Shown here: positions 8,840-31,918 of the stretch, in pieces
Numbering within the stretch: position 1 is the stretch's first letter
Layout of the letters: the number at the start of each line of letters is the position of its first letter
Assembly (NCBI GenBank): GCA_963700285.1
Contig: CAVOXA010000013.1
Span: 1 to 31,918 of the forward strand
DNA length: 31,918 nucleotides
Direction of reading: 5' to 3'
Source: an uncultured Chloroflexia bacterium
GTDB lineage: Bacteria > Chloroflexota > Anaerolineae > JAAYZQ01
Made by a program: the position numbers and the translations under genes
Notes under the pieces: generated by a model
What the model saw: the letters and a program-made list of their open reading frames with translations, nothing else
Database searches by the model: none
Told to the model about the DNA's origin: nothing

Positions 8840-8884
8840 GAACAGGGCTACCGAGGGTAACTACCGCACTGTTATCATTTCAAG

Positions 8885-8913
8885 TTGACAAAAATACACT
8901 GAATACGTATAAT
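8885..8913 (+). promoter_or_regulatory. Perfect-consensus sigma70 promoter for the large secreted protein
   Basis: TTGACA (8885-8890), 17 nt, TATAAT (8908-8913). Confidence 0.85.
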
Positions 8914-8995
8914 TAGCCTTGTTTTACTTTGTCGCCAGCCCAGGCAGTTTAGCGAGCCTGGATAGCATCCACTGAGGAGCAGGAAGGACGGAATC

Positions 8996-13005: not shown

Positions 13006-13128
13006 TCCTGTGAAGAAGAGCATATCATCAACGGCGGTCAGTTTCTTGGGCCATGAGTCTTCTTCAAAATAGTACAGACACTTTGTCGGCACTGTACCGG
13101 AATCGGTGCCATCGCTCCCCCAGAGCTG
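13006..13128 (-). pseudogene. Remnant of an ELWxxDGT-repeat protein
   Basis: Translation QLWGSDGTDSGTV...SWPKKLTAVDDMLFFTG matches one ELWxxDGT repeat unit. Confidence 0.6.
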
Positions 13129-13141
13129 AGTTGATCTGCTC

Positions 13142-13170
13142 TTGACAGATTCGAACGTTTGTGCTACAAT
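13142..13170 (+). promoter_or_regulatory. sigma70 promoter with an imperfect LexA box in the spacer; no large ORF immediately downstream
   Basis: TTGACA-17 nt-TACAAT, with CGAAC-GTTT-GTGCT at 13152-13165. Confidence 0.6.
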
Positions 13171-13390
13171 AGACGAGTAGAGAGGCATGACAGTGCCAAT
13201 GTGCTTGCTGCTAGACAGTCATGCAGGAGAGAATTGACCCGAACACGCTCCCCATCCCGATGTTGAACCCGAAACAAAAAGATCCCGATGCCCGGGTGCC
13301 ATCTGTTGTTGTCGCCTTTCTCAACATCAGCAACATGATCCTTCAACGTGATACATGAGACCAGCACAAGTATCCTTTTTAACCGCAGTG

Positions 13391-13399
13391 TGGTATAAT
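13391..13399 (+). promoter_or_regulatory. Extended -10 element upstream of the MATE-like gene
   Basis: TGgTATAAT, ~75 nt before ATG 13474. Confidence 0.55.
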
Positions 13400-13473
13400 C
13401 CCGCCTATTCTGCGACCCCCTGCCGGCCTGCCTTGAGGGCACGAGCAGAGGGCCACAAGTACCGGACCAACGC

Positions 13474-14790
13474 ATGACCACAAAAAAAGCACCCAGTCAT
13501 ATGCCCGACACGGAGCCGACCCTTCGCCAGATGTTGGCCCTATGGCTTCCCCTGGCCGCCAGCATCGCCATGATGGTCCTCGAACCCTCCGTCATCAACA
13601 TCGGCTTGGGACGTACAGCCGATGCTGAACTGGCTCTGGCTGCCTATGGCGTGGCTTTCAGCCTCGCCCTATTGGTCGAAGCGCCCATCCTCATGCTCCT
13701 CGACGCCTCGGTAGCTCGGGCCACGGACCGGGCGGCCTTTGGTCTGATCCGGCGTTTTGCCCTGGCTCTCGGGCTCATTGTAACTGCGATCGGATTGGTC
13801 GTCTCACTCAGCCCTCTCTATGTGCTGATAGTCGAAGGGCTGATGAACATCCCGACCAACATTGCCGCCGAGGCCCGTCCGACCTTGCAGATACTTGCCT
13901 TTTGGTCTCTGCCCATCGCCTGGCGACGGGCCAACCAGGGTGTGCTGATCCGCTTGCGAAAGACGACCAGCATCAGCGTGGCCACCGCTGTCCGCCTGGT
14001 CACCCTGGCTGTGGCCCTATTCCTGGGCATGTCTCTTCTGCCTGAGCAAGGGGCGGTGGTGGCTGGCTTGGCCATGGTGCTCAGTGTCACCGTCGAAGCA
14101 GCCCTCATCACTGTGTCTGTGCAGTTTGTGCTCCGGTCCGGTGATCTCCCTGCAGACGCTTCCGAAACCGATCAACCTGCCCTCACCTTGCGCGGGCTCT
14201 GGCGCTTCTACCGGCCCCTGGGTACGACGACGATTCTGCGGCAGACGACCCGGCCCGTGCTCAACGCTGGCATCGCGGCCGCCAGTCTGGCCGTCGCCTC
14301 CCTGGCCGCCTGGCCCGTGGTCTGGGGTTTTGCCATGCTGATCACCGGTCCGGCCTGGAGCTTGCAGCAACTCACCACCGCCCTTGCCACGGACCAGATC
14401 GCCTATCGCCGCGTGCGCCGCTTCTCGCTGAGCTTGAGCGTGATCATGGCCCTCACCTTGGGCCTGGTTGCTTTTACGCCGCTCTATGGCATGGTGATGG
14501 GCGGCATCTACAATCTGTCGCCCGAACTTCAGGCGCTGGCGCGGCCGGCCATGCAGCTCCTGGTCATCTATCCCCTGGTGATGGGTTCGCAGTCTCTGCT
14601 CCGTGGCGTGCTCATCCGTACGGGCCGTACGGGAGCGGTCCGGTCAGCGATGACGGCCAACGTCCTGACACTCGCCGGGATGGTACTGGTGGGCATCGTG
14701 TTCCTGTCACCCACCGGCGTACTTCTGGCCGCCGGCGCCACGCTGGCCGGAGCCCTGGTAGAATTGGCCTGGCTGCGCTGGAGGGCCTAG
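13474..14790 (+). CDS. MATE/ANKH-like multi-pass membrane transporter
   Basis: About 12 hydrophobic segments in two homologous halves (LWLPLA / FYRPLG; LAAYGVA / LAAWPVV). Confidence 0.8.
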   Translation: MTTKKAPSHMPDTEPTLRQMLALWLPLAASIAMMVLEPSVINIGLGRTADAELALAAYGVAFSLALLVEAPILMLLDASVARATDRAAFGLIRRFALALGLIVTAIGLVVSLSPLYVLIVEGLMNIPTNIAAEARPTLQILAFWSLPIAWRRANQGVLIRLRKTTSISVATAVRLVTLAVALFLGMSLLPEQGAVVAGLAMVLSVTVEAALITVSVQFVLRSGDLPADASETDQPALTLRGLWRFYRPLGTTTILRQTTRPVLNAGIAAASLAVASLAAWPVVWGFAMLITGPAWSLQQLTTALATDQIAYRRVRRFSLSLSVIMALTLGLVAFTPLYGMVMGGIYNLSPELQALARPAMQLLVIYPLVMGSQSLLRGVLIRTGRTGAVRSAMTANVLTLAGMVLVGIVFLSPTGVLLAAGATLAGALVELAWLRWRA

Positions 14791-14937
14791 TGCATGCTCG
14801 AGACTGATGGTTTGAATGCACAGGTCGCGCCGGCCTGGAAGAGCCAGCGCTATGCCTGAAACCACAAGACTATGGCTAGCACCGCCTGTTTCACGGCGGT
14901 GCGGTCCTGCCTTCGGAAGACTCCTTCCCTGGCGGTA

Positions 14938-14987
14938 TGGACAAATGGCCCTGCAACGGCTATAATACCCACACGAACCTTCGTTCT
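14938..14987 (+). promoter_or_regulatory. uvrB promoter and LexA box
   Basis: TGGACA-17 nt-TATAAT (14961-14966), with CGAAC-CTTC-GTTCT at 14974-14987. Confidence 0.85.
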
Positions 14988-15000
14988 ATAGGGGGAAACG

Positions 15001-17022
15001 ATGCCCGATTTTCAGGTTGTCTCTGATTTCCAGCCGATGGGCGATCAGCCGCAGGCCATTGATCTACTGGTCGACGGCTTGGGCCGGGGCTATCAACATC
15101 AGACACTGCTAGGCGCCACGGGAACCGGCAAGACCTTTTCCGTGGCCAAGGTCGTGGAACGGACCCAGAAACCAACGCTGGTGATGTGCCACAACAAGAC
15201 GCTGGCGGCCCAGCTCTACTCCGAGTTTCGCCAGTTCTTTCCCCACAACGCAGTCGAGTATTTTGTCTCCTACTATGATTACTACCAGCCGGAAGCATAT
15301 CTCCCTCGCACGGACACCTACATCGAGAAGGATGCCGACATCAACGAAGAGATCCAGAAGCTTCGCCTGGCCGCCACGGAAGCCTTGATGACCCGGCGCG
15401 ATGTGATCATTGTCGCCAGCGTATCGGCCATCTACAGCCTTGGTTCGCCCGAGGAGTATGGGCGTGAGGTGGTTGAACTGCGTATGGGGGAAACCCGTCG
15501 CCGTGCCTCGGTACTGCGCCACCTGGTGGCCATCCACTACGACCGCAACGACGTGGCCTTCAAGCGCGGTACCTTTCGCGTACGTGGCGATACGCTGGAC
15601 ATCTTTCCGGCTTACCGTGACACGGCCATGCGGGTCGAATTCTGGGGCGATATGGTGGACCGCATCACCGAGATCGACCCCCTCACCGGCGAGATCCTGG
15701 ACGAACGGCAGTCGATCCAGATCTACCCGGCCAAGCACTTTGTCACCCGTGCCGAGGAGATGACCGAGGCCATCAAGAACATCGAGGCCGAACTGGAGGA
15801 GCGCCTGGCCGAGCTTCGCGCCCAGGACAAGCTGCTGGAGGCCCAGCGCCTGGAGCAGCGTACCCTGTACGACATTGAGATGATGCGCGAGATCGGCTAC
15901 TGCTCGGGCATCGAGAACTACTCCCTGCACCTCAGCCACCGCGAGACCGGCGCCGCACCCTGGACCCTGATCGACTACTTTCCCGACGATTATCTGCTGG
16001 TCCTCGACGAAAGCCATATGACGGTGCCGCAGATCCGCGGCATGTACAATGGCGACCGGGCGCGCAAGGAGGTGCTGGTCGAACATGGCTTTCGCCTACC
16101 CTCGGCGCTGGACAACCGGCCCTTCCAGTTCCGCGAGTTTGAGGAGCGCATCAACCAGGTGATCTATACCTCGGCCACGCCGGGGCCCTACGAACAGCAG
16201 ATGTCAGCTCAGGTGGTTGACCAGATCATCCGTCCCACCGGTCTGGTGGACCCGGAAGTGATCATCAAGCCGACCAAAGGGCAGGTGGATGACCTGCTCG
16301 GCCAGATCCGCAAGCGGACGGAGCGGGGCGAGCGGGTGCTGGTAACGACCCTGACCAAGCGGATGGCCGAGGATCTGGCGGACTACCTGGCCGAACTGGG
16401 CATCAAGGTTCACTACCTCCACTCGGAGATTCAGACCTTGGAGCGCGTAGAGATCTTGCGTGACCTGCGCCTCGGCGTGCACGATGTGGTGGTAGGCATC
16501 AACCTGTTGCGCGAGGGCCTGGACCTTCCGGAGGTCTCGCTGGTGGCCATCCTCGATGCTGACAAGGAGGGTTTCTTGCGCTCTGACACGGCCCTCATCC
16601 AGACCATCGGGCGAGCCGCCCGGCACGTCAACGGCCAGGTAATCATGTACGCGGACCGTACCACGGACTCGATGCAGCGGGCCATTGATGAGACGAATCG
16701 CCGCCGGGCCGTCCAGGAGAAGTATAATGAAGAACACGGCATCAGCCCCGAGAGCATCGTCAAAGAGGTTCGCGATCTAACCGACCGAGTGCGCATGGTG
16801 GCAGAGGAACGGGCAGAATACCGCCTCACAGGCGATCTGCCCCAGGCTGAAGTCACCTACCTGATCGGCGAGCTGGAGGCGCAGATGAAGCAGGCTGCCG
16901 CGAACCTGGAATTCGAGAAGGCAGCCCTGCTCCGCGATCAGATCTTTGAACTGCGCAAGCAGTTGGAGGACGAGGCCGTGCCCGAGTGGGAGCGGATCTG
17001 GAAAGAGAGCCGCAAGCGGTAG
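15001..17022 (+). CDS. uvrB: Excinuclease ABC subunit B
   Basis: [44 protein letters not shown], and a C-terminal UVR domain (FEKAALLRD). Confidence 0.99.
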
Positions 17023-17154
17023 GCTTGAACCAACTTGCGCCTGTTACCAACCCTGGCCCACCTCCTGCGAAGATGTCTCGACCTGAACCTCATCCGAGCT
17101 ATGGTTCACAGATCCCTGGCCAGCCACAGCCCTGGAATTCCGGTTGTCTCACCC

Positions 17155-18207
17155 CTAGGCTGCTTGAAGGACGGCCCTGGCCGCATCCAGCGCTTGGTCA
17201 ATGTCTTCAGCCGTGATGCCATAATGGGTCACAGCGCGAAAGCGACTGCCGCCTATGGCCCCGACCTTGACCCCTCGCGCTGCCAGGCCGGCATGGAACC
17301 TTGCTGGCTCAGGGCCTTCGGGCGCTGTCTCAAAGATGACGAGGTTGGTCGGGACCCGGTCCAGGTCCAGCACGATGCCGGGCAAAACGGCCAGCCCCTC
17401 CGCCAGCTTGTGGGCGTTGGCCTGGTCCTCAGCCATGCGGTCGACCATGGTTTCCAGGGCCACGATACCGGCTGCAGCAAGCACGCCTGCCTGTCGCATG
17501 CCGCCTCCCAGCAGCTTGCGCTGCCGCCGTGTTTCCGCGACGAACGGCGCCGGGCCGCACACCAGCGCTCCCACCGGCGCGGCCAAACCCTTGGATAGGC
17601 AAAACGTTACCGAATCCGCATCGAGGGTGAGGTCAGCCACGGGTACGCCCAGCGCTACGGCCGCGTTAAACACCCGCGCCCCATCCAGATGGACGGCCAG
17701 GCCATGGCGGTCCGCCAGGGCGCGGACCTGGCTCATGTACGCAGGGGTGAGCACGGCCCCGCCGCAGCGGTTATGCGTGTTCTCCAGGCAGATGAGCCGG
17801 CTGTGGGGATGATGCGGGTTGTCGGTCGGCCGGATAGCCGCTTCGATGTCGGCGAGGTCAAGCGTGCCGTCGGGCTGGTTGGGCACCGTCCGGGGGTGGA
17901 TGCCGCCTACGGCAGCAGCACCGCCCGCCTCAAAAAGAAAAGTGTGGGCCATGTGGCCCATGATCGCTTCCTGGCCCCGCTGGCAGTGGGCCAGCAGGCA
18001 GACCAGGTTGCCCATGGTGCCGCTGACCACGAACAGTCCGGCCTCCTTGCCCATACGTTCGGCCGCCATTGCTTCCAGGCGATTGACTGTGGGGTCTTCA
18101 CCCATCACGTCATCGCCAAGTTCGGCCTCGAACATGGCCTGGCGCATGGCGGGGGTGGGCAGGGTTACTGTGTCGCTCCGCAGATCGATGAATCTCGAAG
18201 GCTCCAT
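17155..18207 (-). CDS. ltaE: Low-specificity L-threonine aldolase
   Basis: IDLRSDTVT, GDDV.GEDPTVN.LE, LENTHN, HLDGAR, PLP-lysine CLSKGL and GGGMRQAG. RBS AGGAGG precedes ATG 18207. Confidence 0.95.
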   Translation of the reverse strand: MEPSRFIDLRSDTVTLPTPAMRQAMFEAELGDDVMGEDPTVNRLEAMAAERMGKEAGLFVVSGTMGNLVCLLAHCQRGQEAIMGHMAHTFLFEAGGAAAVGGIHPRTVPNQPDGTLDLADIEAAIRPTDNPHHPHSRLICLENTHNRCGGAVLTPAYMSQVRALADRHGLAVHLDGARVFNAAVALGVPVADLTLDADSVTFCLSKGLAAPVGALVCGPAPFVAETRRQRKLLGGGMRQAGVLAAAGIVALETMVDRMAEDQANAHKLAEGLAVLPGIVLDLDRVPTNLVIFETAPEGPEPARFHAGLAARGVKVGAIGGSRFRAVTHYGITAEDIDQALDAARAVLQAA

Positions 18208-18253
18208 TGCGTTCTTCCTCCTATGTTGAAGGGACTGGCGTTCTTCCAGGGGC

Positions 18254-18282
18254 ATTGTACTGCAACATCAACAAGTTGGCAA
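18254..18282 (-). promoter_or_regulatory. sigma70 promoter of ltaE
   Basis: Minus strand TTGCCA-17 nt-TACAAT. Confidence 0.65.
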
Positions 18283-18319
18283 GAAACCCACGCCCACAGC
18301 ATCCATTCGGCCCCGAGCT

Positions 18320-18428
18320 GTCATTCCCGCGCAAGCTTGGCCCGAGTAGATCTACCCTCCGGGAGTTGCACCTTGGGAACCAACCGGTTTCAATCGGTCA
18401 TTCTCCGCATGCTCCTGGCGGGAATCCA
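18320..18428. repeat. Degenerate REP-like palindromic element
   Basis: GTCATTCCCGCG (18320-18331), a second GTCATTC at 18397, and GCGGGAATCCA (18418-18428). This resembles the GTCATTCCCGCG...GCGGGAATCCA class of short palindromic repeats. Confidence 0.55.
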
Positions 18429-18458
18429 CGTGAGCCCGGCCTCCAGCAACCTGAAACC

Positions 18459-18487
18459 TGGACTTTTCGGATCAGATGCGCTACAAT
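18459..18487 (+). promoter_or_regulatory. sigma70 promoter of the MFS-amidohydrolase-GNAT operon
   Basis: TGGACT-17 nt-TACAAT. Confidence 0.55.
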
Positions 18488-18566
18488 CCGACAGCGAACG
18501 CTGTCAAGGAGGCAGCGCCATGGTTGCTGCAAGGCAGAAAGTCATGTACTCTCCAAGGACGCCCCT

Positions 18567-19817
18567 TTGAGCGATAGCTTGCCGAATATACGCGGGTCTG
18601 CCCGTACGACCACCTGGCGTCTGGTAGCAGCCGGGATGGCGCGCCTATTCCTCAACACAGCGCTGCGCATGGGCTACCCATTTGCGCCAGCGCTCAGCCG
18701 TGGACTGGGTGTGCCGCTCACCTCGATGACCTCGGGTCTCGCCCTCAGCCAGTTGACCGGCTTCTTTGGTATCATTACTGGGCCCATGGCCGATGGCTGG
18801 GGCCGGCGACGGATGATGCTCGCCGGGATGACCATGCTTGCTGGCGGCATGCTGGTTGCGGCAGCCCATCCAACCTTTGTGACCGTGCTGATGGCCCTCT
18901 TTCTAGCTGGATTGGGCAAGACCTTCTTCGACCCGGCGCTAAAGGCCTACGTCGGCGATTGGATTCCCTACGAACGCCGGGGGCGGGTCATGGGCGTTCT
19001 CGAGTTCTCCTGGGCAGCGAGTCTGCTGTTCGGTATCCCACTCGTCGCCCTGTTGATAAGCCGCTTTGGATGGCGGTCTCCTTTTTTTCTCCTGGGTGCT
19101 GCCGGCCTGGTGAGTGCAGCCTCCATACTATTGCTGTTCCCTCGGGGACGCCTGCGGGCGCAGTACTCGGGAGTCGCGGCAGGCCTTCTCAGTGCCTGGC
19201 AGCACCTGGCTGGCGAACCGGCGGCCCTCTGGGTACTTGCTTCCAGTGTGTTGGTCGCCGCAGCCAACCTCGCTCTCTTTGTCGTCTATGGCGCTTGGAT
19301 GGAGCAGTCTTTCTCCTTGAGCATTGTTGCGCTTGGAACGACCGGCTTGCTCATTGGCCTCAGCGAGTTGTTGGGCGAAAGCCTCACCGCCTTAACCTCT
19401 GACCGGATCGGTCTGAAGCACGCGCTCCTCATCGGCTCGGCCCTCCTGGTCGGCAGTTACTGTCTGTTGCCCTGGTTTGGCCACAGCCTGTCGATGGCCC
19501 TGGCGGGCTTGTTCATCGTCTTTGTCTGCTACGAGTTCGTGGTCGTCACCGCAATGTCCCTATCCACCGAGATACTGCCTCATGCGCGCGCGACGATGAT
19601 ATCGGCGCTCATTGTGGCCAGTAGCCTTGGCCGTGCGGTGGGCACCGCTGGTGGGGCACTGGTCTGGGAGGAGGGCGGGCTGCTGGCAATCAGTATCGTC
19701 GCAGCAGTGATCACGGCGTTCAGCTTGTTGTGTTTGGTCTGGGGGCTGCGCAATTGGCACCCCGAGAGCGCACTCTCTCCCCCGGAGCCTGGGGGTCTCG
19801 AGGAGGATCTGGAATGA
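18567..19817 (+). CDS. MFS transporter (start approximate, TTG)
   Basis: Motif A GPMADGWGRR and SDRIGLK, plus ERRGRVMG and about 12 TM segments. Confidence 0.9.
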   Translation: MSDSLPNIRGSARTTTWRLVAAGMARLFLNTALRMGYPFAPALSRGLGVPLTSMTSGLALSQLTGFFGIITGPMADGWGRRRMMLAGMTMLAGGMLVAAAHPTFVTVLMALFLAGLGKTFFDPALKAYVGDWIPYERRGRVMGVLEFSWAASLLFGIPLVALLISRFGWRSPFFLLGAAGLVSAASILLLFPRGRLRAQYSGVAAGLLSAWQHLAGEPAALWVLASSVLVAAANLALFVVYGAWMEQSFSLSIVALGTTGLLIGLSELLGESLTALTSDRIGLKHALLIGSALLVGSYCLLPWFGHSLSMALAGLFIVFVCYEFVVVTAMSLSTEILPHARATMISALIVASSLGRAVGTAGGALVWEEGGLLAISIVAAVITAFSLLCLVWGLRNWHPESALSPPEPGGLEEDLE

Positions 19818-21202
19818 CCGATATTCTCATCAAGAATGGCACCATTGCCACAATGGATCAGCAGGCTAATGTCTACCAAAACGGCAGCCTGTACGTCAAG
19901 GATGGCAGGATTGTCGCGGTAGGAGAGCAAGTGGATGTCTCTGGCAGTCCGGATCACATCATTGATGCGGAACACAAGGTCGTTCTCCCCGGCTTTGTGA
20001 ATGCCCACGCCCACCTCCAGCAGTACTTTCGGGGCGTCTATGAGCTGGTCGGCGAGTTCTACAAGGTCAATCTTCCCCTGGAAGGGTACCGCCGTCCCGA
20101 AGACATGGAATACCTGGGCCTCGCCTCTTGCGCCGAGTTCATCTATGGCGGCTGCACCACGGCCATGGTCATCTATACGTACCCTGACGGTTTTGCCAAG
20201 GCCGTGGAACAAGCCGGAAACAGGGTCATCCTGGCTGCCGACATCGAAGAGGTTGATCTCGACCGGCTGGGGCAAGGTGTCTATGAGTATCTGCCTGAGA
20301 AAGGAGAGGCTGCCTTCGAGCGTGCCCAGGACCTTTACCGAAACTGGCATGGGAAAGCAGGTGGCCGCATAACCACCATCATGGCGCCCAAAGCTTCGGA
20401 TCTGGCTCGGGCCGAAACCTACCTGAAATGCCAAGAGTTTGCGCAGAGGCACGGCCTGAGATTGACCACACACCTCTCCCAGAGCTGGCGTGAGGTCAAA
20501 CAGGTGGAGGAGCTGTATGGCAAGACGCCGCCCCAGCATCTGCACGACCTGGGCATTCTCGACGAACAATTGACCGGTGCTCACTGTACTTACGCTACCG
20601 AGCTGGATACCCAGCTTATCGCAGAGGCTGGCATGGGCATTCTGCACTGCCGATCCGTCACCAATCCGCTCGTCCGCTGGATGGACATGGGCATACCTGT
20701 TGGCCTGGGAACCGACGACTACCACCACGACATGCTCCAGCTCCTGAGGGAGAACCTGGCGGGCCAGGCCGCGCGCGCCCGGCTCATCGAAGGGGCCGAA
20801 GAGATGCTGGCCAGTGACCGGCGTACCTCCCGGCCCAGCTTTTACGAACTCCTCGAGCTGGCTACCCGGCGTGGCGCAGAAACCTTGGGCATCGACGGAG
20901 AGGTGGGCTCCCTGGAGCCAGGCAAAAAGGCCGACATCATCACCATCAACATGCAGAACCCCTACCTGACGCCCACCCTGGATCCCCTCACCAGTATCGT
21001 GCTGTATGGTTCTTCGCGGGATGTTGACACGGTCATCGTGGATGGGCGTGTCCTCAAGAAAGATGGAAACCTCACCAGCCTGGATCTGAAGGAGGCGCTG
21101 GCCACCGGTCAGGCGAGAGTCGAGCAGATCATTGGCAGGTTCTTTCAAGAGCATCCTGATCAGAAAAGCGCCTGGCTGCGCAGGGTCCCGTATTTGGGGT
21201 AG
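19814..21202 (+). CDS. Metal-dependent amidohydrolase (MtaD/AtzA/guanine deaminase-like)
   Basis: ATGA overlap with the MFS stop and RBS GGAGG. Motifs PGFVNAHAH, HLSQ, AHC, LGTD and GSLEPGKKAD. Confidence 0.92.
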   Translation: MTDILIKNGTIATMDQQANVYQNGSLYVKDGRIVAVGEQVDVSGSPDHIIDAEHKVVLPGFVNAHAHLQQYFRGVYELVGEFYKVNLPLEGYRRPEDMEYLGLASCAEFIYGGCTTAMVIYTYPDGFAKAVEQAGNRVILAADIEEVDLDRLGQGVYEYLPEKGEAAFERAQDLYRNWHGKAGGRITTIMAPKASDLARAETYLKCQEFAQRHGLRLTTHLSQSWREVKQVEELYGKTPPQHLHDLGILDEQLTGAHCTYATELDTQLIAEAGMGILHCRSVTNPLVRWMDMGIPVGLGTDDYHHDMLQLLRENLAGQAARARLIEGAEEMLASDRRTSRPSFYELLELATRRGAETLGIDGEVGSLEPGKKADIITINMQNPYLTPTLDPLTSIVLYGSSRDVDTVIVDGRVLKKDGNLTSLDLKEALATGQARVEQIIGRFFQEHPDQKSAWLRRVPYLG

Positions 21203-21232
21203 CCTGCCCGGTTCGCCAAGCACGTCTGTGGA

Positions 21233-21787
21233 GTGAGCGTGATGAGCATCATCCGACAAAATCTGCCCCTCACCATGGTACGGGACAACCTCGAGGGAAT
21301 CCCTCGCCATGGCCTGCCTGTTGGTTATTCGATGCGGAGGTACCAGCCGGGCGACAAACGCCTTTGGGAAGAGATCCACCGCCTGGCCGATCCGTACAGC
21401 GCCATCGCCCCTCACCTCTTCGGCCAGGAGTTTGGGCCTGACGAATCAGTGCTGGCAGAGCGCCAATTCTACCTCCTGGACGCTCGGCAGCGGGCGATTG
21501 GCACGGCCACCGCGTGGTACGATGACGACTTTGAGGGAGTGGGCTATGGTCGCGTTCACTGGGTAGCCATCGTTCCAGAGTACCAGGGCCAGGGGTTGGC
21601 CAAGCCGCTAATGGCGGCTATCTGCTGCCGGCTGCGGGAATTGGGGCATGAGCGCGCCTATCTGAGGACCTCTTCCGCCCGCATTCCGGCCATTCATCTG
21701 TACCTGCGCTTTGGCTTCATTCCCTTGATCGATGGACCTGACGGACTCGGGCTCTGGCGACAACTTGAAAAAGAACTCGGGCGGTGA
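21233..21787 (+). CDS. GNAT-family N-acetyltransferase
   Basis: Acetyl-CoA motif VAIVPEYQGQGLAK and AIHLYLRFGF. Confidence 0.9.
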   Translation: MSVMSIIRQNLPLTMVRDNLEGIPRHGLPVGYSMRRYQPGDKRLWEEIHRLADPYSAIAPHLFGQEFGPDESVLAERQFYLLDARQRAIGTATAWYDDDFEGVGYGRVHWVAIVPEYQGQGLAKPLMAAICCRLRELGHERAYLRTSSARIPAIHLYLRFGFIPLIDGPDGLGLWRQLEKELGR

Positions 21788-21892
21788 GCGCCTGTGGTTG
21801 GACGATGCGGTGATGGTATACCTTCCTCTGTTCCGCATCCCGTCCCGCTCTGCTGTGGGAGGGCCTTTGGTGCACATCTCCAGGCTTGCCCA

Positions 21893-24800
21893 TCATCCCT
21901 CACGAAGGGCATTGTCTATGCATGTGCTCATCTTTTCTGCCAGGACCCGCATGTGGGATTCTTCTACCGCGATACCATGGGCACCAACGATGGATACGTG
22001 ACTGCCAGGGATCTCGTGGACTTGAGCACCTCCCTCCGCAAACTCGCCCCAACCCGCCCGCGGGCTGTCGGCATCGCTCAAAGTCGCCTTGGCCAGAAAG
22101 ATCTCAATCCGACCTGGGTAGGGGCGTGGAACGTAGCGCCTTACGGCCCACAAGTTGGCCAGGACCTTTAGCCTGAGGCGCATATAGTCTCGCTGTCCGG
22201 TGGAGGGTAGTTCAACTATCCTGTGCGTGTGGTGGCCAATGCGTTGCCGAAATGTTCGAAGGAGGTAAGACACAAAGCGTAGGGTGGTCTGCAGCCCAGG
22301 ACTTCGCAGGGGTGAGGGTTCCACCATGGCCAGGAGAGGCACTTTCTGTCCCTGTGCCCAGAGTTGTTGAGCCATCTCAAAGGCCACAACGGCGCCCGAG
22401 CACACCCCAGCCAGGAGATAGGGGCCCTCGTGCTGCACGCGACGGATCTCATGCAGATAGCGTGCAGCCATTGCCTCGATCCAGACTGGGTTCTGAGCCC
22501 CATCCTGGAGGCCGTAGAACGGTTGCTCAGGGCCGAGGTACTGGGCAAGATCGCCGAGATCAGTGAACACATTGCCTACATTGCCAGGGACAACAAACAG
22601 AGGAGGTCTGGAGCCGGCGAGCCGCATCGACACCAGCGGTGACCATGCTGCTGTCACAGATCCCTTCTCCCGGTCCACGGTCGCTGCCAACTCTTCGATG
22701 GTTGGCGCCTGAAAGAGGGCGGCCAGCGGCAGCTCTACATTGAGTGTTTTGTTTATGAGGGCTAGCAGGCGTATGCCCAACAGCGAGTGCCCCCCAAGGT
22801 CGAAGAAGTTGTCATGGACGCCTACCCGCTCAACGCCCAGGACTTGGGCCCAGATACTGGCCAGTGCTTCTTCCCCTGGAGTCCGGGGGGCGGCATAAGC
22901 AGCCCCTAACTGAGAAAGACTCCCGTTGGGCTCGGGAAGCGCGTTCCGGTCGACCTTACCGCTGGGCGTGAGAGGCAGTTGCTCCAGAAACACAAAGGCC
23001 GTAGGGACCAGCGCCGCTGGTAGTTGCTGACTCAGATAGGTTCTCAATTGGCCAGCCGTCGCACGTTCTTCCCTTGAAGCGACCACATAGGCCCCGAGAT
23101 AGGTCTCCCCCTGCTTCTGCTTCCGGGGGATAACCACACAGGCCTCCACGGCCGGGTGGCGGGCCAAGATGGCGGTGACCTCGCCAGGTTCTACACGTAC
23201 CCCTCGGATCTTGACCTGGTCGTCGAGCCGGCCCAGGATCTCGAGTAGTCCGTCGGGCCGATATCTGCCCCGGTCGCCCGTATAGTACAGCAGGTCTCCC
23301 TCTTTGTTGTGGAATGGGTTCGGGGCGAAGCGATTCTGTTCTTCCTCGGAGGCATGGATGTAGCCCAGGGTCCGGAAGGGTGTGCGCAGCACGATCTCTC
23401 CAGGTTCACCAATACCACACAACCGCTTTCTGTCTGTGAGAACCAATGCCTGGGTCTGTGGCATCGGCCAGCCTGCAGGTTGGACACCGGGGAGAGGCTC
23501 GGCTGGCACACGATAGAAACACTTGACCATGGTGGTCTCGGTGGGCCCATAGAGGTTGATGATTTCGCCTCCACCAGAGAAGGTAGCCCGCCATTTGCGA
23601 ACCAGCGCCTCGGTGAGCGGTTCACCCGCAAAGAACACCCAGCGCAGGGCACGCAGAGAGATGCTCGCTGGAGTATGAGCCAGCCATAGTTGGGCCAGAG
23701 ATGGCACCGTGTTCACAATCGTGATGCGCTCATGTTCGAGCCACTGCATGAGATCTTGCGGATCAAGGGCATCCGTACCATCTGGCAGACAGAGCGTCGC
23801 GCCGCTGACCAACGGCAAGAAGACATCCCGTAGAACTGCGTCAAAGGAAAGGCCAATCAACTGCGCTGCCCGGTCTCCTGGTCCGACCGAAAAGGTGTCA
23901 CGCTGCCAGGCAAGGAAATGTCCCAGGCTCTTGTGACAGCCCAATACGCCTTTGGGCACACCCGTCGTGCCAGAGGTGAAAAAGATGTAGGCCGGATCAT
24001 CGGGACTCGGGTCTGGCAAAGGACCTGAATCCTGCCCCTCATCCGGCTCTGCACCCATGAACCGGCCTGTCTCTTGGTCTACCCGTAGAACAACCAGATC
24101 TGGCCCTCCAGCCGACCACCCACCCGCCTCGTAAGCGCCACTGACGCGCAACATTGCCCTCGCAGCAGCCTCTCGCAGCATGAGCTGCTGTCGCTGGAGG
24201 GGAAGTGAGGGATCAATGGGCAAGAGCACGCAGCCACTCATGAATGTGCCGATCATGCTGGCAATCAGACCAAAGCTCCGCGAACCGAACACTGCTACCA
24301 CATCCCCTGGCTGCAATCCTCTGGCTAGCAAATGTCGCGCTAGGGAATGGGCACACTCGGACAATGTGCCGTAGGTCCAGTTTCGTCCAGCTCTGGATGA
24401 CCGCTGGGCTGTCTGGTGCGCGATCTGCCCACGCGGCGAACATTTGCATCACCGTTTCCTGGGGCGGTTCAGCCAGAAGGGCGCGCGGATCAGGCAGCAA
24501 GGGGTGGGCTTCTGATGTCACGAGCGAGTAGGATTGATAGGTTGCTCGGGAGAGAGGACAATCTGCTCGAGCAACTGCCGGTATTGGGCCAGCATCTCGG
24601 CCATGCGCGCCTGGCTGAATAGGTCGGCATTATAGACGAAACGCAACTGAATGCTCTCGCCCTGGTCCGAGACATACACAGTCAAGTCGAAATTCGACTT
24701 TGTCCCCCTGCGAGGGAGGTTGCTGATGCTGAGCCCTTGCAGAGCCAGGGGTGTGTTCCGTGCGGGGAGCATGTTGAAGAAGACCTGAAAGAAGGGAGTA

Positions 24801-25963
24801 CGGCCAAGTTCGCGTTCCGGCTGGAACTCCTCGAGAAGTTTTTCAAAAGGGACATCCTGATGATCATAGGCCGCCAGGGTGGTCTCGCGCACTCGGTGGA
24901 GCAGTTCGAAAAATGATGGCTGCCCGGACAGATCTGTGCGCAGGACCAGATTGTTCAGGAAGAAGCCGATCAAAGCCTCAGTCTCGCGGTGATTCCGGCC
25001 GGCAATGGGTGTACCGACGACGACGTCCTCCTGGCCAGTGAGGCGGTAGAGCAGCGCCTTGAACGCGGCCAGCAAGGTCATGAACAGGGTGGTGCGCTCC
25101 CGTTGGCCGAGTGTTTTGAGCGCATGGGTCACATCTTTTGGTATCTCCAGGGACTGCGTCCCCCCCCGATAGGTCTGCATTGGCGGACGCTGGTGGTCAA
25201 GGGGCAGCTCCAGGTTGGGCGGAGCGCCTTCAAGCTGCTGCTTCCAGTAGCCAAGCTGTTTCTCCAATACCTTCCCCCGAAGCCACTCCCGCTGCCACAG
25301 GGCATAGTCCGCGTACTGGATGGGTAGCTCGGGAAGCGGTGAAGGTTCTCCAGCGGCAGAGGCAGCGTACAGGTCAGAGATCTCGCGGCGGAGGATGCCC
25401 ATCGACCAGCCGTCGGAGATGATGTGGTGGATGCTGAGGAGCAGCACATGCTCTTCATCCTGCAGCCGCCACAAGGCGGCTCGCAGAAGTGGACCCTGGG
25501 CCAGGTCGAAGGGCTGCCGGGCACCCTCCTCAACCAGCCGCTGGACTTTATCCTGCCGCTTGCTCTCGGGCAGCTCTCGTAGATCCACCACCGGCAGGCT
25601 CAAGGCCAAGGCTGGGGAGATCTTTTGCACTGGCCGGCCATCCATGGCGAAGAAGGTGGTTCGCAAAGCCTCGTGGCGCCGTACGACCTCGTTAAGGCTC
25701 TGCTTCAGCGCTGGTACGTTCAGCGGTCCCAAAATCTGATAGGCTCTGGACATAATGCGGACGGGACTGCCAGGCTCCAACTGGTCGAGGAACCATAGCC
25801 GCTCCTGGCCAAAGGAAAGCGGTATCTCGTCGAGATCGTGTCTCCGGGGCCTCACCTGTTGCCGAGTCGGTGCGATCTCCTCCCCCTCGAGGAGGTAGGC
25901 AAGAAGCTCTAGATCCTCCCTAGTGAGTTCATTGCTATCTAGGCGCTTTTCGGTCTGGGTCAC
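21893..25963 (-). CDS. NRPS module C-A-PCP-TE (Cys-type TE); two apparent frameshifts (~24530, ~24385)
   Basis: C domain HHIISDGWS; A domain FTSGTTGVPKG, NLYGPTE, TGD, SGKVDR; PCP LGGHSL; TE GVCSG. ORFs 24518-25963, 24213-24521 and 21893-24364 join across the C-A linker. Confidence 0.92.
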
Positions 25964-27402
25964 GCAGATTCTCTCCTCCGCCTTTGCTTCTCAAACATCC
26001 TCTTGACCTCGTTGGCCGGGATGCCTTCAACCTTGTTCCAGAGTTGGGCGATTCTCTCTGTCTGTCCTGGTCTCTCCTCCCGGGCGATGATCGCCTCTGA
26101 CAGCTCGGCAATCGTGGGCGCCTCAAATATCGTGAGCAGGGGGACCTCTACGCGCAGGGAATCTCGCACGCGGGAGGCAATCTGGGTGGCCAGCAGCGAG
26201 TGTCCTCCCAGTTCAAAGAAGCTGTCGTGGATGCCAATCTTCTCGATGCCAAGGACCTCGACAAAGATGTCGGCCAGCACTTCCTCGACCGGTGTGCGAG
26301 GGACCACGTAGGCCTGCGCTGGTTCGTGTCTTGCCCAATCGGGCTCGGGAAGTGACTGTCGGTCGACTTTGCCATTGGGTGTCAGCGGGAGAGCCTCGAG
26401 CATCGCAAAGGCGGCAGGGACCATATAGTCGGGCAGCTTTTCCCGGAGAAAGCCACGCAGATCAGAGGGAATCAGGGTTGCCCCGCCCTCCGGGACGACG
26501 TAGGCCACCAGCCGCTCGTCGCCCTGTGTCTTTTCCTTGATCAGCGCAGCCGCCTGTCCCACGTCCGGATGTTGCCGCAGGACGGCCTCAACCTCCCCGA
26601 GTTCAACGCGGAAGCCACGGATCTTCACCTGGAAGTCCTTTCGGCCTTGGTGAACAAGGCGGCGGTCGTGCGACATGCTACCCAAGTCTCCGGTGAGATA
26701 GATGCGCTGGTTTGTATCATCTGGATCGTCAAGAAACTTGGCTAGAGTCAGTTCAGGCGTGTAGTTCATGATCTCATGAAGCAGATTGCGATGGCTGTGA
26801 GCGACCCCTTTGGGCTGACCGGTTGAGCCCGAAGTATAGAGCAGAAAGGCAAGCCTATCCGGCGATATGGGTAGACCCGGAGAGTCTGTTGATGTGCTGC
26901 CATCGAGCTCATCTACATCCTGAATTTGGTGCACGCTCTCAGCCAGTATCCTGGCCAAACCCACATTCCGCCTGTTAGTCAGGATGAGGGGTGCCTGCGA
27001 ATCCCGAAGCGAATAGCTGATCCTGGCTTGGGGATAGGTAGGATCCAGCGGGACGTACATCTTCCCAGCCTTGAGTGCCCCCAAAATAGTCGCAATCAGC
27101 GGTGCTCCCTGCTCAAGAAGTACAGCGACGGGCATCTCACGGTCGCCAAGCTGCCGGAGGATGCCATGTGCCACTCGGTTGGCAGCTCTGTCCAACTCGT
27201 CGTAGGTGAGCTCCTGGCTCGATGTCTTGACCGCGAGTTTCTGGCCATACTCGACCGCCAGCTTTTCGAACCGGTCAGGGATCGATTGCTCGATTTCGTC
27301 TCTTGCGAAGGCGATGAACTCACCGCTGGGATGGAACCACTTTCCTTGAGTTTTCCCCTGGCTTTGCGTAGTGCCAAAGGGTAGTCGGGCAGCTTCACTC
27401 AT
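25960..27402 (-). CDS. Stand-alone NRPS A-PCP didomain with an in-frame internal deletion of the A-domain core
   Basis: YTSGSTGQPKG is followed almost directly by PELT...YLTGDLG, so motifs A4-A6 are missing. PCP LGGHSL is present. Confidence 0.88.
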   Translation of the reverse strand: MSEAARLPFGTTQSQGKTQGKWFHPSGEFIAFARDEIEQSIPDRFEKLAVEYGQKLAVKTSSQELTYDELDRAANRVAHGILRQLGDREMPVAVLLEQGAPLIATILGALKAGKMYVPLDPTYPQARISYSLRDSQAPLILTNRRNVGLARILAESVHQIQDVDELDGSTSTDSPGLPISPDRLAFLLYTSGSTGQPKGVAHSHRNLLHEIMNYTPELTLAKFLDDPDDTNQRIYLTGDLGSMSHDRRLVHQGRKDFQVKIRGFRVELGEVEAVLRQHPDVGQAAALIKEKTQGDERLVAYVVPEGGATLIPSDLRGFLREKLPDYMVPAAFAMLEALPLTPNGKVDRQSLPEPDWARHEPAQAYVVPRTPVEEVLADIFVEVLGIEKIGIHDSFFELGGHSLLATQIASRVRDSLRVEVPLLTIFEAPTIAELSEAIIAREERPGQTERIAQLWNKVEGIPANEVKRMFEKQRRRRESA

Positions 27403-27628
27403 CAGATGTCTCCAAAGCAATCAGCCAGGCGCCGGAAATCGCCGTAAGCGCAAAGCCTGACCTCTCCAACATGCCCGTCAACTCCGGGGCGGTATCGTAG
27501 TCCTGCTCCCACCAGTGTAGGCCCCCCTCCCATTTGAACCGCTTTCCTCCACAAGGACGAAGGGGTCCCTTGTCCGCAGCAACAGCTCTGCCTCCGCCCG
27601 TTGCCGGGCTGGGGCACGGAAGTGCCAT
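27395..27628 (-). CDS. Small ORF (77 aa), possibly a remnant of a larger tailoring gene
   Basis: Starts 2 nt after the upstream NRPS stop and overlaps the next start. The C-terminal half (WWEQDYDTAPELTGMLERSGFALTAISG) looks protein-like. Confidence 0.4.
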   Translation of the reverse strand: MALPCPSPATGGGRAVAADKGPLRPCGGKRFKWEGGLHWWEQDYDTAPELTGMLERSGFALTAISGAWLIALETSDE

Positions 27629-27630
27629 CT

Positions 27631-30600
27631 TCAACCATTTGACAGAACGTGGTCGATACGCGCTCGCAGCTTTGCTGCCAAGGCTTGCATGTGGGTTTCT
27701 TCTATTGGGACATCCAGGCCGACAATGGTCGCATGGTTGCCCGGGAACTCGTGTACCTCTGCTGCCGGAACAGCCAGTTCGCGCCAACCCAATTGAGGAT
27801 TGCCGTGGATTCTGAGGGACTCGTCCGTGAGGAATAGGTCCAGCCGGCCTTGATAAGGCACTGGGGCGTAGTGGGTCACGGCCCAGTCATTCGCCCATAC
27901 CTTCAGCTTTAGCCGCAAGTAACCCTTCTGCTCAGCAGCGGGCATCTCCGCAATTCTACTTGCATGGCGGCCAAATCGTCGGAACAGGCGGCCCATCTCC
28001 CAGGCCCCAAGACCGAGGTAGGCGCGAAGGCTGGGAGCTTCTGGATGTGATGGCTCTACAAGGGCCAGCAGAGCTACCTGCTTACCCTGGGCCTGGAGCT
28101 GCTGGGCCATTTCATAGGCCACCACGGCGCCTGAGCATACGCCGCCCAGAAGGTATGGACCCTTCGGTCGGACCGCGCGTATCTCGTCGAGATAATGAGT
28201 GGCCAGTGCCTCGATGCGCACCGGATTTTGTGCGCTGTCTTGCAGCCCATAGAAGGGTTGATCCGGACCAAGGTGATGGGCCAAGTCGCCGAGATCGTTG
28301 AATACATTTCCCAGGTTTCCGGGCAGGAAAAACAGCGGGGGTCTGGATCCGGTGGGTTGCATGAGCACCAATGAGGACCAGGTCGCCGGGCCGGCCTCCG
28401 CGTCTACACTCAGGATTTCCGCTAGCTTCTCGACAGTGGGTGCCTGGAACAGAGCGATCAATGGGAGATCCGTGCCAAATGCCTTGTTGATGGTAGCGAT
28501 CAGGTGCACGGCCAGGAGCGAGTGTCCACCCAGCTCGAAAAAGTCGTCGTGGACGCCAACCTTTTCGACACCGAGAACCTGGACCCAGATCCCGGCCAGT
28601 ACCTTCTCTACCGGCGTACGGGGGGCGACAAGAAGCTGCTTCAGCTCCGCCTCGACCAGTCGGGAGCCGGAAGGGCACGACGATCTGCCTTGCCGCTGGA
28701 CGTCAGTGGCAAAGCTTCGAGTATCACAAAGGCCGAGGGTACCATGTACTCGGGCAGTTTCCTCCTCAAGAAGCCGCGCAGTTCCCCAGTTTCAGGGACC
28801 GGCTCCTGGTTCGGAACCACATAGGCCACCAGGCGCTTTTCGCCAGGCAGATCCTCTCTGGCCAAGACCACCGCTTCCCGCACAGTTGGATGTTGGGACA
28901 GCAGTACCTCGATCTCGCCCAGCTCAATACGGAAGCCCCGTACCTTGACCTGATGGTCGATTCGCCCCAGGAACTCGATATTGCCATCCGGCAGGTAACG
29001 GGCCAGATCCCCCGTATTGTACAGGCGTTTACCCGGCTCATCGCTGAAAGGGTTGGGAATGAACTTCTCCGCCGTCAGCCCCGGCTGGTGTAGATACCCT
29101 CGCGCCAGCCCGATTCCTCCGATGTGCAATACCCCCGGTACGCCGGCTGGCACGGGGTTCAGATGCCCGTCCAACAGGTGGATCTGCGTGTTGGCAATCG
29201 GCCGGCCTATGGGCACCACCTGTGGCTCTTCGTCGCGTCTACAAGCCCAATAGGTCACATCCACGGCTGCTTCCGTCGGGCCGTATAGATTGTGCAACTC
29301 CGCTTCGAGGTGGGCAAAGAACCTCTCTTGAAGATCAGGCGGCAGCGCTTCCCCACTGCAGATCACGCGTCTCAGGGACACACACCTCTCGACTCGGGCT
29401 TCTTCGAGAAAGACTTGCAGCATGGAGGGTACAAAGTGCAGGGTAGTGATCTGCCGCTCGGAGATCAGCTGTACCAGATAGGCGCTATCCTTATGTCCTT
29501 CCGGCCGGGCCACCACCAGGGTTGCGCCGGTCATGAGTGGCCAGAAGAACTCCCACACCGACACATCAAACGTAAAGGGTGTCTTTTGCAGCACTCGGTC
29601 ATCTGTACCTAGCTGGTAGGTCTGTTGCATCCACCCCAGCCGGTTGGCCACTGCCCGATGCCTGTTCACGACCCCCTTGGGCTTTCCCGTCGAACCCGAG
29701 GTATAGATCACATAGGCCGGATTCTCCGGCATCGCCCCCCCCGCTGGGTTCTCCTCACTCTCCCGCATGATGGCGCCCCAGTCGACATCAAAGCACACAA
29801 CTGCAGCGTCGCACACAGGCAGCTGTTCCACCAACCGCTGCTGGGTCAGTAGCGCCGGGGGCCGGATGTCATCCAGCATCAGGGCAATGCGTTCCTTGGG
29901 AAGCGTAGGGTCCAGCGGCACATAAGCCCCACCCGCCTTGAGAATGCCCAGCAGACCCACCACCATCTCCAAGGAGCGCTCAAGAAAGATGCCCACTAGC
30001 GTTTCGCACCCCACGCCCAATCTCTGCAGATGATGGGCGACTTGATTGGCGCGCCGATTCAACTCGCTGTAGCTCAACTGTTGATCCTCAAAGACGACGG
30101 CTGTGGTCTCTGGGGACTGCTCGACCTGGCGCTCAAAGAGGTGATGGACGCACAAGTCACTTGGGTAGTCCGTCTGGGTGTCGTTCCATTCCACGAGCAG
30201 TTGCTGCCGCTCAGCGTTTGTCAGCAGCGGCAGTTGTGAAACTGGCTGGTCTGGGTCTTCCAGGATCCCATCTAGCAGGGTGCTGTAGTGTCTCAGCATC
30301 CGCTTCATGGTCGCCTCTTCAAACAAGTCGGTGTTGTATTCCAGAACCCCTCTCAGCCCTTCGGCCTCCTCCATTGTGAACAGAGTGAGATCGAACTTGG
30401 AAGTACCACTGTCGACCTCAAAAGAGCTCAGGCTCAATGCGGAAAACTGAATCGCCTGAGACTGAGAAATCTGCTGGACGAACATCACTTGGAACAGCGG
30501 TGAGTAACTGAGATCCCGCCCTGGCTGCAGTTCCTCCACCAACTTCTCGAACGGGAGATCCTGGTGGGAGAATGCCTCGAGCGCAACTTGCTTCACACGA

Positions 30601-31742
30601 CTCAATGCCTCTCGGAAAGTGGGATTGCCCGTCAGGTTTGTGCGCAGTACGAGCGTGTTTACAAAAAAGCCAACCAGATCCTCCACTTCAATACGATTCC
30701 GGTTGGTGATGGGAGAGCCCACGACAACGTCTTCTTCACGGGTGTATCGAAGCAGCAAGACCTTGAACGCTGCCAACAGGGTCATGAACAGGGTTGCATC
30801 CTCTTGGCGGCTCAGCGCTTGCAGTCGCTGCGACTTGGAAGCCGGCAGCAGGAGCAACGATTCGTACGCGCCCTCATGCGTCTGCCGTGCCGGCCTGGGG
30901 TGGTCGGATGGCAAGTGGAGGGAAGGCGGAGCGCCGGCCAGCTTCTCTTTCCAGTACGAAAGCTGGGTCTCCAGTACTTTACCCTGCAGCCATTCCCGCT
31001 GCCAAACAGCATAATCTGCGTATTGGATAGGAAGCTTCTCAAGTGGGGATGGTCTGGCGTTCGCGAATGCGTCATAGAGTACCGCTACTTCTCGGAGTAC
31101 TATCCCAATCGACCATTCATCACAGACAATATGGTGCATGTTCAAGAGCAGGAGGTGCTCTGTTCTACTCATTCGTATCAGACTGGCCCTGACGACCGGG
31201 CCAGATGCCAAGTCGAAAGGCTGCTCTGCTTCCTCACGCATTAGCCGACATGCCTCGGCTTCCCGCTCGGTCTCTGGCAAAGCTTCCAGGTCCACCATTG
31301 GCAGGGCTAGGGGCATGGCTGGGGCGATGATTGGGTATGGATTTCCTTCGACAGCAGAAAAGGTCGTGCGCAAGACCTCGTGGCGTTCGATGATCGCATG
31401 GAGGCTCTGTTCCAGCACGTACGCATCAAGCGCACCGGTCACGCGAAAGGCCACGGGGACGCTGTAAAGAGGACTGTCTGGCTCATACTGATCCAGAAAC
31501 CACAAGCGCTCCTGGGAAAAGGACAGTGGTAATACTCCGTCCCGTGAGACAGGATGAATACCTAGTTCATGGACGGTGGTCGCATGCAGGAAGGCGAGGA
31601 TCTCTTTCTTGCGCCTGACGAGCTGCGTCTTTAGTTCAGGTGTCAACGTGCCTTCCGGTGCACTCACGCGTAGCTGATCACCATCCGCTGACACCTTGAT
31701 GTCCTGGGTCCGAAGGTATGACAGGAACTCTTGCAGGGTCAT
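27631..31742 (-). CDS. NRPS module: TubC-N-type docking domain-C-A(Ser-like)-PCP-TE (Cys-type TE); one apparent frameshift (~28650)
   Basis: N-terminus LRTQDIKVSADGDQLRVSAP; C domain HHIVCDEW; A domain FDVSVWE, LHFVPSML, CSGEAL, NLYGPTEAAVD; PCP LGGHSL; TE GVCSG. Adding one G in agg(g)cg restores ...WSRAELKQLLVAPRTPVE. Confidence 0.93.
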
Positions 31743-31918
31743 AGCTCAAACTCCTCACGCTTTGATTGGGTACCCGTTGCGTCGTGAGTTTGGTCCTGCA
31801 CCGCCCATTGGGCGATCTCTATCGATTCGGCCAGGCCTGCAACTGTGCGGGCCTCAAAAAGGTTACGCAGAGGAAGATCGACCTGAAAAGCAACCTTGAC
31901 GCGGGCCGCTACCTGTGC
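31739..31918 (-). CDS. 3' end of an upstream NRPS/PKS: PCP tail and C-terminal docking peptide (partial)
   Basis: Not in the ORF track. It translates as AQVAARVKVAFQVDLPLRNLFEARTVAGLAE...SKREEFEL*, with an ATGA overlap to the next gene. Confidence 0.88.
   Translation of the reverse strand, partial: AQVAARVKVAFQVDLPLRNLFEARTVAGLAESIEIAQWAVQDQTHDATGTQSKREEFEL

Follow-up and report, generated by a model that had tools for sequence, protein, structure and literature searches.

A Chloroflexota-centred clade of Cys-His-Glu thioesterases in short non-ribosomal synthetases, probably releasing their products through an acyl thioester and without four-membered ring closure

Thioesterases (TEs) with a nucleophilic Cys make up about 2% of known TEs according to PMC13288461, and two of them in non-ribosomal peptide synthetases (NRPSs), ObiF and SulM, close strained four-membered rings. 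Does a Cys codon at this place announce the same chemistry elsewhere? The question is raised by a stretch of 31,918 nucleotides, called the window here, which is the entire contig C13 of a metagenome-assembled genome (MAG) of 7.05 Mb (22 contigs, 89% complete, 6.5% contamination). The best named relatives of its UvrB protein, at 83-86% identity, are in Anaerolineae and Chloroflexota MAGs. The window carries two NRPS genes, NRPS1 and NRPS2, which end in the TE domains TE1 and TE2, and a first-pass annotation of the DNA had proposed strained-ring release as a possibility for both. We consider it likely that TE1 and TE2 instead belong to a Chloroflexota-centred clade of Cys-His-Glu TEs that releases chains through an acyl thioester, and not by the four-membered closure of ObiF and SulM.

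Both domains score above the curated PF00975 cut-off of 26.4 bits (Table 1) and each lies directly behind a carrier domain with an intact GGHS site. Sequence and translation bear out the earlier reading of a GVCSG elbow with a TGC codon in both domains, and of VEPS at the place where the triad Asp usually lies; the Glu of VEPS follows the Cys by 27 residues. The domains are as clearly similar as had been claimed (140 of 252 positions identical, 56%; E 3e-99), and the motif PGN.GNVF.DLGDLA..LGP.QPFYGLQD that they have in common is real and is kept across the family. Sequencing error as the source of the Cys, already discounted by the annotation, can be ruled out, since the two paralogues share the residue and it is read again in a duplicate of the locus on contig C1, in L083 (a metagenome contig from short reads) and in 138 of the 139 members of the clade described below. 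On C1, residues 58-254 of TE2 are 100% identical, Cys included, and the protein that corresponds to TE1 (P0188) reads GVCAG. L083 is 71% identical to TE2 and was the only close one among the nine loci from a scan of metagenome contigs; the scan of genome contigs gave 80 loci, the best of them 45% identical. TE1 and TE2 are type I TEs in which Cys and Glu replace the usual Ser and Asp.

Loss of the triad acid is ruled out, as the Glu stands at the Asp position both in the HMMER alignment and in the alignment of the clade. In the AF2 model (pLDDT 92.1; TE2 numbering) the strands 81-85, 108-112, 184-189 and 211-216 were recovered, so that beta5, beta6 and beta8 are followed by Cys86, Glu113 and His220, respectively, and there are lid helices at 122-148 and 152-174. 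The HMMER alignment pairs Glu113 with the Asp of AB3403 (ABBFA_003403 of Acinetobacter baumannii, 4zxh) and with that of 7crn. Glu113 of TE2 and Glu114 of TE1 are thus at the canonical place of the acid, after beta6 and 27 residues past the nucleophile, here called position I. Position II, which lies 29-30 residues ahead of the His, is occupied by Lys190-Ala191 in TE2 and by Asp-Glu in TE1. The first-pass annotation had called for a comparison of the Asp position with ObiF and SulM in a structure model, and the modelled acid appears at position I, not moved behind beta7. A Glu or Asp at residue 191 was considered as the true triad acid and rated unlikely; this residue is Ala in TE2, is acidic in 80% of the clade and is often acidic, too, in the Ser/Asp/His relatives of cyanobacteria and acidobacteria. 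On these grounds we infer from the alignments that Glu113 is the triad acid paired with His220.

Searches of solved structures gave a broad set of TE relatives. With the family profile, AB3403 was the best match in the PDB (E 2.9e-30), followed by 7crn, the TE of human fatty acid synthase (FAS), NocB, EntF and Pks13; RifR was found at E 0.009. The Z scores from VIA-align were 24.2 for the Pks13 TE, 23.6 for the FAS TE, 23.1 for 7crn, 23.0 for AB3403, 22.7 for both the OocS-type branching TE and EntF, 22.6 for NocB and 19.9 for RifR. Z scores of 20-24 were reached with 30 or more solved TE entries, and the Foldseek order was similar. Neither ObiF nor SulM was among the best 50 rows of Foldseek or VIA-align, an absence that excludes nothing. 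ObiF1 (6n8e) was present in the PDB set searched, and its part with the condensation (C) and adenylation (A) domains matches NRPS1 at 2e-116. Its TE was not among the 40 matches of TE2 at E ≤ 1, nor among the 60 of 63 family-profile matches listed (E ≤ 10).

An HMMER search of 1.84 billion representative sequences returned 30,699 proteins at E ≤ 0.001, 398 of them at E ≤ 1e-30. The best 150 proteins contributed 181 TE stretches that were aligned to TE2. The nucleophile was Cys in 117 of these, Ser in 54 and another residue in 10, and the acid site held Asp (85), Glu (69), Asn (14) or another residue (13). A FastTree phylogeny was built from 265 TE domains, comprising the hits that spanned query residues 20-235 and the two window domains; shorter stretches were dropped, and the tree held no sequences of ObiF, SulM, MacB-TE or BulbE-TE. 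TE1 and TE2 were both recovered in a clade of 139 domains with an SH-like support of 100. Cys and Glu occur together in 137 of its 139 members, the exceptions having Ser with Glu in one case and Cys with Asp in the other. Site by site, the clade alignment has Cys in 138 members, Glu in 138 (Asp in the other) and His in 136. The architectures in the clade are A-T-TE (about 870 amino acids, aa), where T is the carrier domain, C-A-T-TE (about 1350 aa) and KS-AT-ACP-TE (about 1255 aa); 43 of 137 proteins measure 800-1000 aa and 34 measure 1300-1450 aa. Where the source is named, it is an Anaerolineae, Caldilineae or Chloroflexi MAG.

Species-representative genomes yielded 80 TE stretches. Cys-Glu-His was found in two, both from Chloroflexota. 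Cys and Glu with no aligned His were seen in two Dehalococcoidia and one Syntrophia, and Cys-Glu-Asp in two Gammaproteobacteria. Ser-Asp-His was present in 51, mostly from cyanobacteria and acidobacteria, at 30-40% identity. Many of the more distant relatives (e.g. P0002, P0033, P0057, P0066, P0074 and P0086) have two TE-like domains, or a TE in the middle of a multi-module protein. GYCFG is frequent among them, the acid site then holding Asn or Asp, and in some second copies the nucleophile is replaced by Asp or Gly, so that these are likely inactive.

In open-access papers and bioRxiv, a search for Cys-His-Glu NRPS TEs matched only an unrelated lecture, nothing was found on this clade in Chloroflexi or Anaerolineae NRPSs, and 'GXCXG' led to the ObiF paper only. 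The passages on TEs in PMC9802089 concern a Dieckmann-cyclising TE of a polyketide synthase-NRPS hybrid, not this clade. As far as this literature goes, what is new is the fixed Cys-His-Glu combination and its spread as a clade on short Chloroflexota lines. Cys-TEs and their chemistry are already known, as is the pairing of Cys with a position-I acid in AB3403, MacB-TE and BulbE-TE.

AB3403 has the C-A-T-TE order of NRPS1, with a Cys in a G-x-C-x-G elbow, an acid 27 residues past the Cys after beta6 and a His after beta8, as in TE1 and TE2. It superimposes on TE2 with an rmsd (root-mean-square deviation) of 3.4 over 234 residues, and its sequence identity is about 22-23%. However, its acid is Asp and not Glu, and AB3403 is itself uncharacterised and gives no chemistry. 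PMC11298585 describes it as the one further NRPS TE with a Cys nucleophile that has been characterised structurally, and places its Asp at position I. MacB-TE of macolacin (Cys89/Asp116/His218) is reported to stop macrocyclisation when its Cys is changed to Ser (PMC13288461), and in BulbE-TE of the bulbiferamides (Cys961/Asp988/His1097) the same change is reported to turn cyclisation into hydrolysis. Both share with TE1 and TE2 the Cys-His-acid set and the acid at Cys+27 after beta6. They differ in having Asp in place of Glu, and in belonging to long lipopeptide or ureidopeptide lines and not to one- or two-module lines. These two Cys-TEs with a position-I acid are reported to make ordinary macrolactams, the product of BulbE-TE being an N-acyl-indole macrolactam.

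ObiF and SulM share the Cys nucleophile with TE1 and TE2, and their products are small. The substrate of ObiF is a beta-hydroxy amino acid, and a chain with a terminal Ser on TE1 would permit the same. The acid, however, is placed differently. In ObiF1 the nucleophile is Cys1146, the vacated canonical site at Cys+27 holds Gly1173, and the other residues are Asp1254 and His1284; in SulM they are Asp2926 and His2956, the Asp lying 30 residues before the His and after beta7, as in ObiF1 (PMC6668435, PMC11298585). The same two papers report that an Asp put back at the canonical site of ObiF1 did not restore activity, and the former that a Cys-to-Ser change in ObiF converts cyclisation into hydrolysis. 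Gln-Cys-Asn, the motif of SulM, is given in PMC11298585 as the mining criterion for SulM-type TEs, and the triad of ObiF and SulM is described as RifR-like. ObiF and SulM have a non-acidic position I and Asp at position II, whereas TE1 and TE2 have Glu at position I and read Val-Cys-Ser at the nucleophile, and TE2 is without a position-II acid.

The closest folds are those of the Mycobacterium tuberculosis Pks13 TE (rmsd 3.4 over 232 aligned residues) and the human FAS TE, both of which also rank among the best sequence matches. Unlike TE1 and TE2, both use Ser-Asp-His. The FAS TE hydrolyses palmitoyl-ACP, and the Pks13 TE transfers the mycolyl chain to trehalose. EntF, a C-A(Ser)-T-TE protein, has the same four-domain order as NRPS1 together with a Ser-activating A domain, and its TE turns up in both the sequence and the fold searches; it too differs from TE1 in using Ser-Asp-His. 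The EntF TE carries out oligomerising trilactone chemistry.

The residue that each TE receives was approached through the ten-residue A-domain codes, which were read by alignment to the NRPS1 A domain with positions set from the GrsA numbering. This extraction is supported, because the canonical Gly, Thr, Cys, Val and Asp codes appear among the hits. NRPS1 has the code DVWHISLVDK, which we call Ser-like by comparison with the Stachelhaus Ser code DVWHLSLIDK. The code of NRPS2, in front of TE2, is DARNFALMVK, to which no residue was assigned. The Ser-type terminal A domain named at first pass belongs to NRPS1 and TE1 only. A complete A domain precedes the TE in 86 of the 137 clade proteins. The alpha-amino-binding Asp235 is present in 40 of these domains and missing from 46; four codes are for Thr, three for Gly and several are beta-Ala-like, and none of the 86 is Ser-like. 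Because the upstream codes are mostly of other kinds, the clade is not tied to beta-hydroxy or beta-amino terminal residues.

We propose that the finished chain would move by transthioesterification from the carrier phosphopantetheine to Cys86, whose thiol would be activated by His220 and Glu113. The thioester would then be resolved by an amine or hydroxyl, in cyclisation or in transfer to an acceptor, or by water. TE1 would off-load a chain ending in Ser, and TE2 the product of the A-T / C-A-T-TE line. We infer that an acyl-S-Cys intermediate forms. By analogy, it is more likely to be captured by an amine or hydroxyl, either on the substrate itself or on an acceptor, than to be simply hydrolysed, because of the outcome of the Cys-to-Ser changes in ObiF, BulbE-TE and MacB-TE and because thioesters are reported to be far more activated than oxoesters towards aminolysis, not towards hydrolysis.

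Several points weigh against this reading. An acid after beta7, 29 residues before the His, is found in TE1 and in 80% of the clade, and a position-II acid may serve in TE1. The contact between His220 and Glu113 is a predicted one, placed by secondary structure and alignment. TE1 and TE2 could still act as hydrolases, human FAS TE, a hydrolase, being among the closest folds. The literature searched held no biochemistry for any member of the clade. Finally, the genes in the window copy carry frameshifts and an A-core deletion, and may make no product.

Two other chemistries were weighed against release through the Cys-His-Glu set, the first being ring closure at the terminal residue to a serine beta-lactone or to a beta-lactam, as in ObiF and SulM. 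It agrees with the Cys in both TEs, with the Ser-like code of NRPS1 and with the Asp-Glu after beta7 in TE1; NRPS1 also consists of a docking domain and just one C-A-T-TE module, and its product may therefore be small like obafluorin or sulfazecin. We nevertheless regard it as very improbable, and this claim of the first-pass annotation was not upheld, although its milder suggestion of some other unusual release or of trans-acylation may still apply. Position I holds Glu in TE1, in TE2 and in the clade (138 of 139), where ObiF1 has Gly, and in ObiF1 an Asp restored there is reported not to have brought activity back. Lys-Ala occupies the position-II site of TE2, the motif is Val-Cys-Ser and not Gln-Cys-Asn, the ObiF1 TE gave no match to TE2 at E ≤ 1, and the 86 upstream A domains comprise four Thr codes, no Ser-like code and 46 not for alpha-amino acids. 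The other chemistry is that of a ligase-like off-loader which, as in the Pks13 TE or LgnA, would pass the Cys-bound group to an external amine, hydroxyl or thiol or to a carrier domain. The commonest architecture of the clade is a single module with its own TE, and the substrates of the 46 A domains without Asp235 are probably carboxylic or beta-amino acids, whose release by hydrolysis would gain nothing. Two such TEs occur per cluster in the window and on C1, and likewise on the contig that encodes P0151 and P0153; the Pks13 TE is the top structural match, and a thioester intermediate is reported to favour aminolysis. Chain translocation by a TE also has a reported precedent in the type II TE LgnA, which acts between T domains (PMC8748450). 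On the other side, the few loci that could be read show no conserved acceptor-making gene beside the TEs, with an acetyl-CoA-synthetase-like gene in L083; similarity of fold does not prove function; and many of the short proteins in the databases are pieces of longer genes from short contigs. As a general account of these TEs we find it quite unlikely.

That the window copy is a decaying cluster in which the TEs are idle is, in our estimate, rather unlikely. The NRPS frames are broken by ±1 frameshifts near 28655 (between A and T of NRPS1) and near 24522-24534 and 24393 (between C and A of NRPS2). A possible fourth lies near 25960-25995, at a T/C boundary that C1 reads through, although C1 is noisy there. 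At the junction 26757/26758 the window also lacks 551 bp of A-domain core that are present in C1 (Pfam positions about 196-384; motifs A4-A6), and its frame is open through the junction into AMP-binding_C and the T domain that follows. On C1, TE2 is interrupted at the place of window position 22485 by a 1.3-kb insertion sequence (IS) with inverted ends (C1:1318406-1319712), which encodes a DDE transposase of 388 aa. A second copy of this IS, 99.9% identical, is on contig C9, and a transposase of the same family (70% identical) is encoded in the window at 5441-6607 on the minus strand, beside an Mrr-type restriction gene (4448-5299). Against decay stands the noise of the assembly. Window positions 8024-27859 and C1:1303941-1325644, about 20 kb, are 96-98% identical, with 202, 49 and 8 gap columns in three aligned pieces, mostly of single bases at non-homopolymer sites. 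This indel pattern is assembly noise laid over some real divergence. C1 reads from the C into the A domain in one frame through both frameshift sites of NRPS2, and a short-read contig of run X1, from a relative about 91% identical, has one extra, compensating base behind 24534. Contigs from four short-read runs cover the region patchily, bridging 24534 and not 24393, about 28655 or 26757; the DNA runs with window sequence share at most 0.19 of the sampled words, and no RNA datasets carrying the window were listed. All three GGHS carrier sites and all catalytic residues are intact, and no stops or degraded motifs were found inside any domain. The NRPS frameshifts are probably assembly errors. 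The 551-bp loss and the IS insertion look like real differences between C13 and C1, and the former may be a true deletion or a misassembly.

The two copies of about 20 kb probably represent a strain variant or a poorly polished duplicate contig, which fits the contamination estimate. Both include uvrB, which is intact in the window (15001-17022) and full of 1-bp indels on C1. Beyond position 27859, inside TE1, similarity to C1 falls from 97% to about 60-70% at the protein level. The cluster on C1 has the order A-MT-T / C-A-T / C-A-T / C-A-T-TE (P0188) / A-T / C-A-T-TE, and the window has one C-A(Ser)-T-TE module where C1 has three modules. NRPS1 is 45% identical to P0188, and its C domain has 77% DNA identity to the first C domain of the C1 line. 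Module loss, recombinational exchange or mosaic assembly could account for the divergence past 27859. The gene that enters the window at its far end (31745-31918) likely encodes the docking partner of NRPS1; its product matches the C-terminal end of the A-MT-T protein on C1 at 56% identity. The parts of the NRPS genes are listed in Table 1.

Table 1. Thioesterase domains, catalytic codons and other parts of the synthetase genes in the window.
Feature	Coordinates	Strand	Description
TE2	21896-22657	minus	C-terminal thioesterase domain of NRPS2; PF00975 56.4 bits
TE2 residues	Cys86 TGC 22400-22402; Glu113 GAA 22319-22321; His220 CAC 21998-22000	minus	Codons read
TE1	27634-28395	minus	C-terminal thioesterase domain of NRPS1; PF00975 73.1 bits
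TE1 residues	Cys87 TGC 28135-28137; Glu114 GAG 28054-28056; His221 CAT 27733-27735	minus	Codons read
Upstream synthetase gene, 3' end	31745-31918	minus	End of T domain and C-terminal tail, cut by contig end
NRPS1, N-terminal part	28641-31742	minus	TubC_N docking, C and A domains (Pfam); A code DVWHISLVDK
NRPS1 T domain	28396-28650	minus	GGHS, Ser codon 28519-28521, in TE1 frame
ORF with end of NRPS1 T domain and TE1	27631-28509	minus	Open reading frame (ORF)
A-T protein or module	25960-27420	minus	First half of A, then AMP-binding_C and T; T Ser codon 26197-26199 (Pfam)
NRPS2 C domain	24518-25963	minus	HHIISDG (Pfam)
NRPS2 A and T domains	22658-24364	minus	A code DARNFALMVK; T Ser codon 22784-22786
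ORF with NRPS2 A, T and TE2	21893-24364	minus	Open reading frame

The C domains of NRPS1 (residues about 202-208) and P0188 read HHIV(C/S)DEWS, with Glu for the Gly of the usual HHxxxDG, which the C domain of NRPS2 keeps. Convergent with NRPS2, on the plus strand at 18207-21787, are genes for an MFS transporter, an amidohydrolase (PF01979) and a GNAT acetyltransferase. Roles in export, self-protection or tailoring are conceivable for these genes, and this neighbourhood is not kept in L083. Further away (8996-12613, plus strand) a protein of 1205 aa is encoded with DUF7948, beta-propeller repeats and six InlB-B-like (Flg_new_2) repeats; its gene has internal DNA repeats with a 216-bp offset (11247-12074 against 11463-12290, 78% identity). 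Upstream of the cluster on C1 (C1:1336000-1355999) are genes for a GFO/IDH/MocA oxidoreductase, a hexapeptide acyltransferase, a FemAB-family protein, three GT4-type glycosyltransferases, a polysaccharide deacetylase and a GHL10 hydrolase, which could be a separate envelope-polysaccharide locus or tailoring genes.

At this locus, a Cys codon alone predicts no strained ring; the position of the acid and the terminal residue are needed too. For the Cys-TEs that have been tested, closures are reported that the Ser mutants cannot perform: ObiF makes a beta-lactone, BulbE-TE an N-acyl-indole macrolactam and MacB-TE a macrolactam. A bolder proposal, which we put forward as an unlikely speculation, is that Chloroflexota evolved their own carrier-fused off-loading domain, a thioester-preserving acyl transferase and not a hydrolase or classical cyclase. 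If this were true, single-module synthetases of the A-T-TE, C-A-T-TE and KS-AT-ACP-TE types, over half of them loading acids other than alpha-amino acids, would couple their building blocks to external acceptors or to each other, and the two TEs of the window would join the products of two short lines. Besides the window, the clade comprises 137 sequence clusters, largely from uncultured Anaerolineae and other Chloroflexota and on very short assembly lines. It offers candidates for new ways of off-loading, in a phylum from which few non-ribosomal products have been described.

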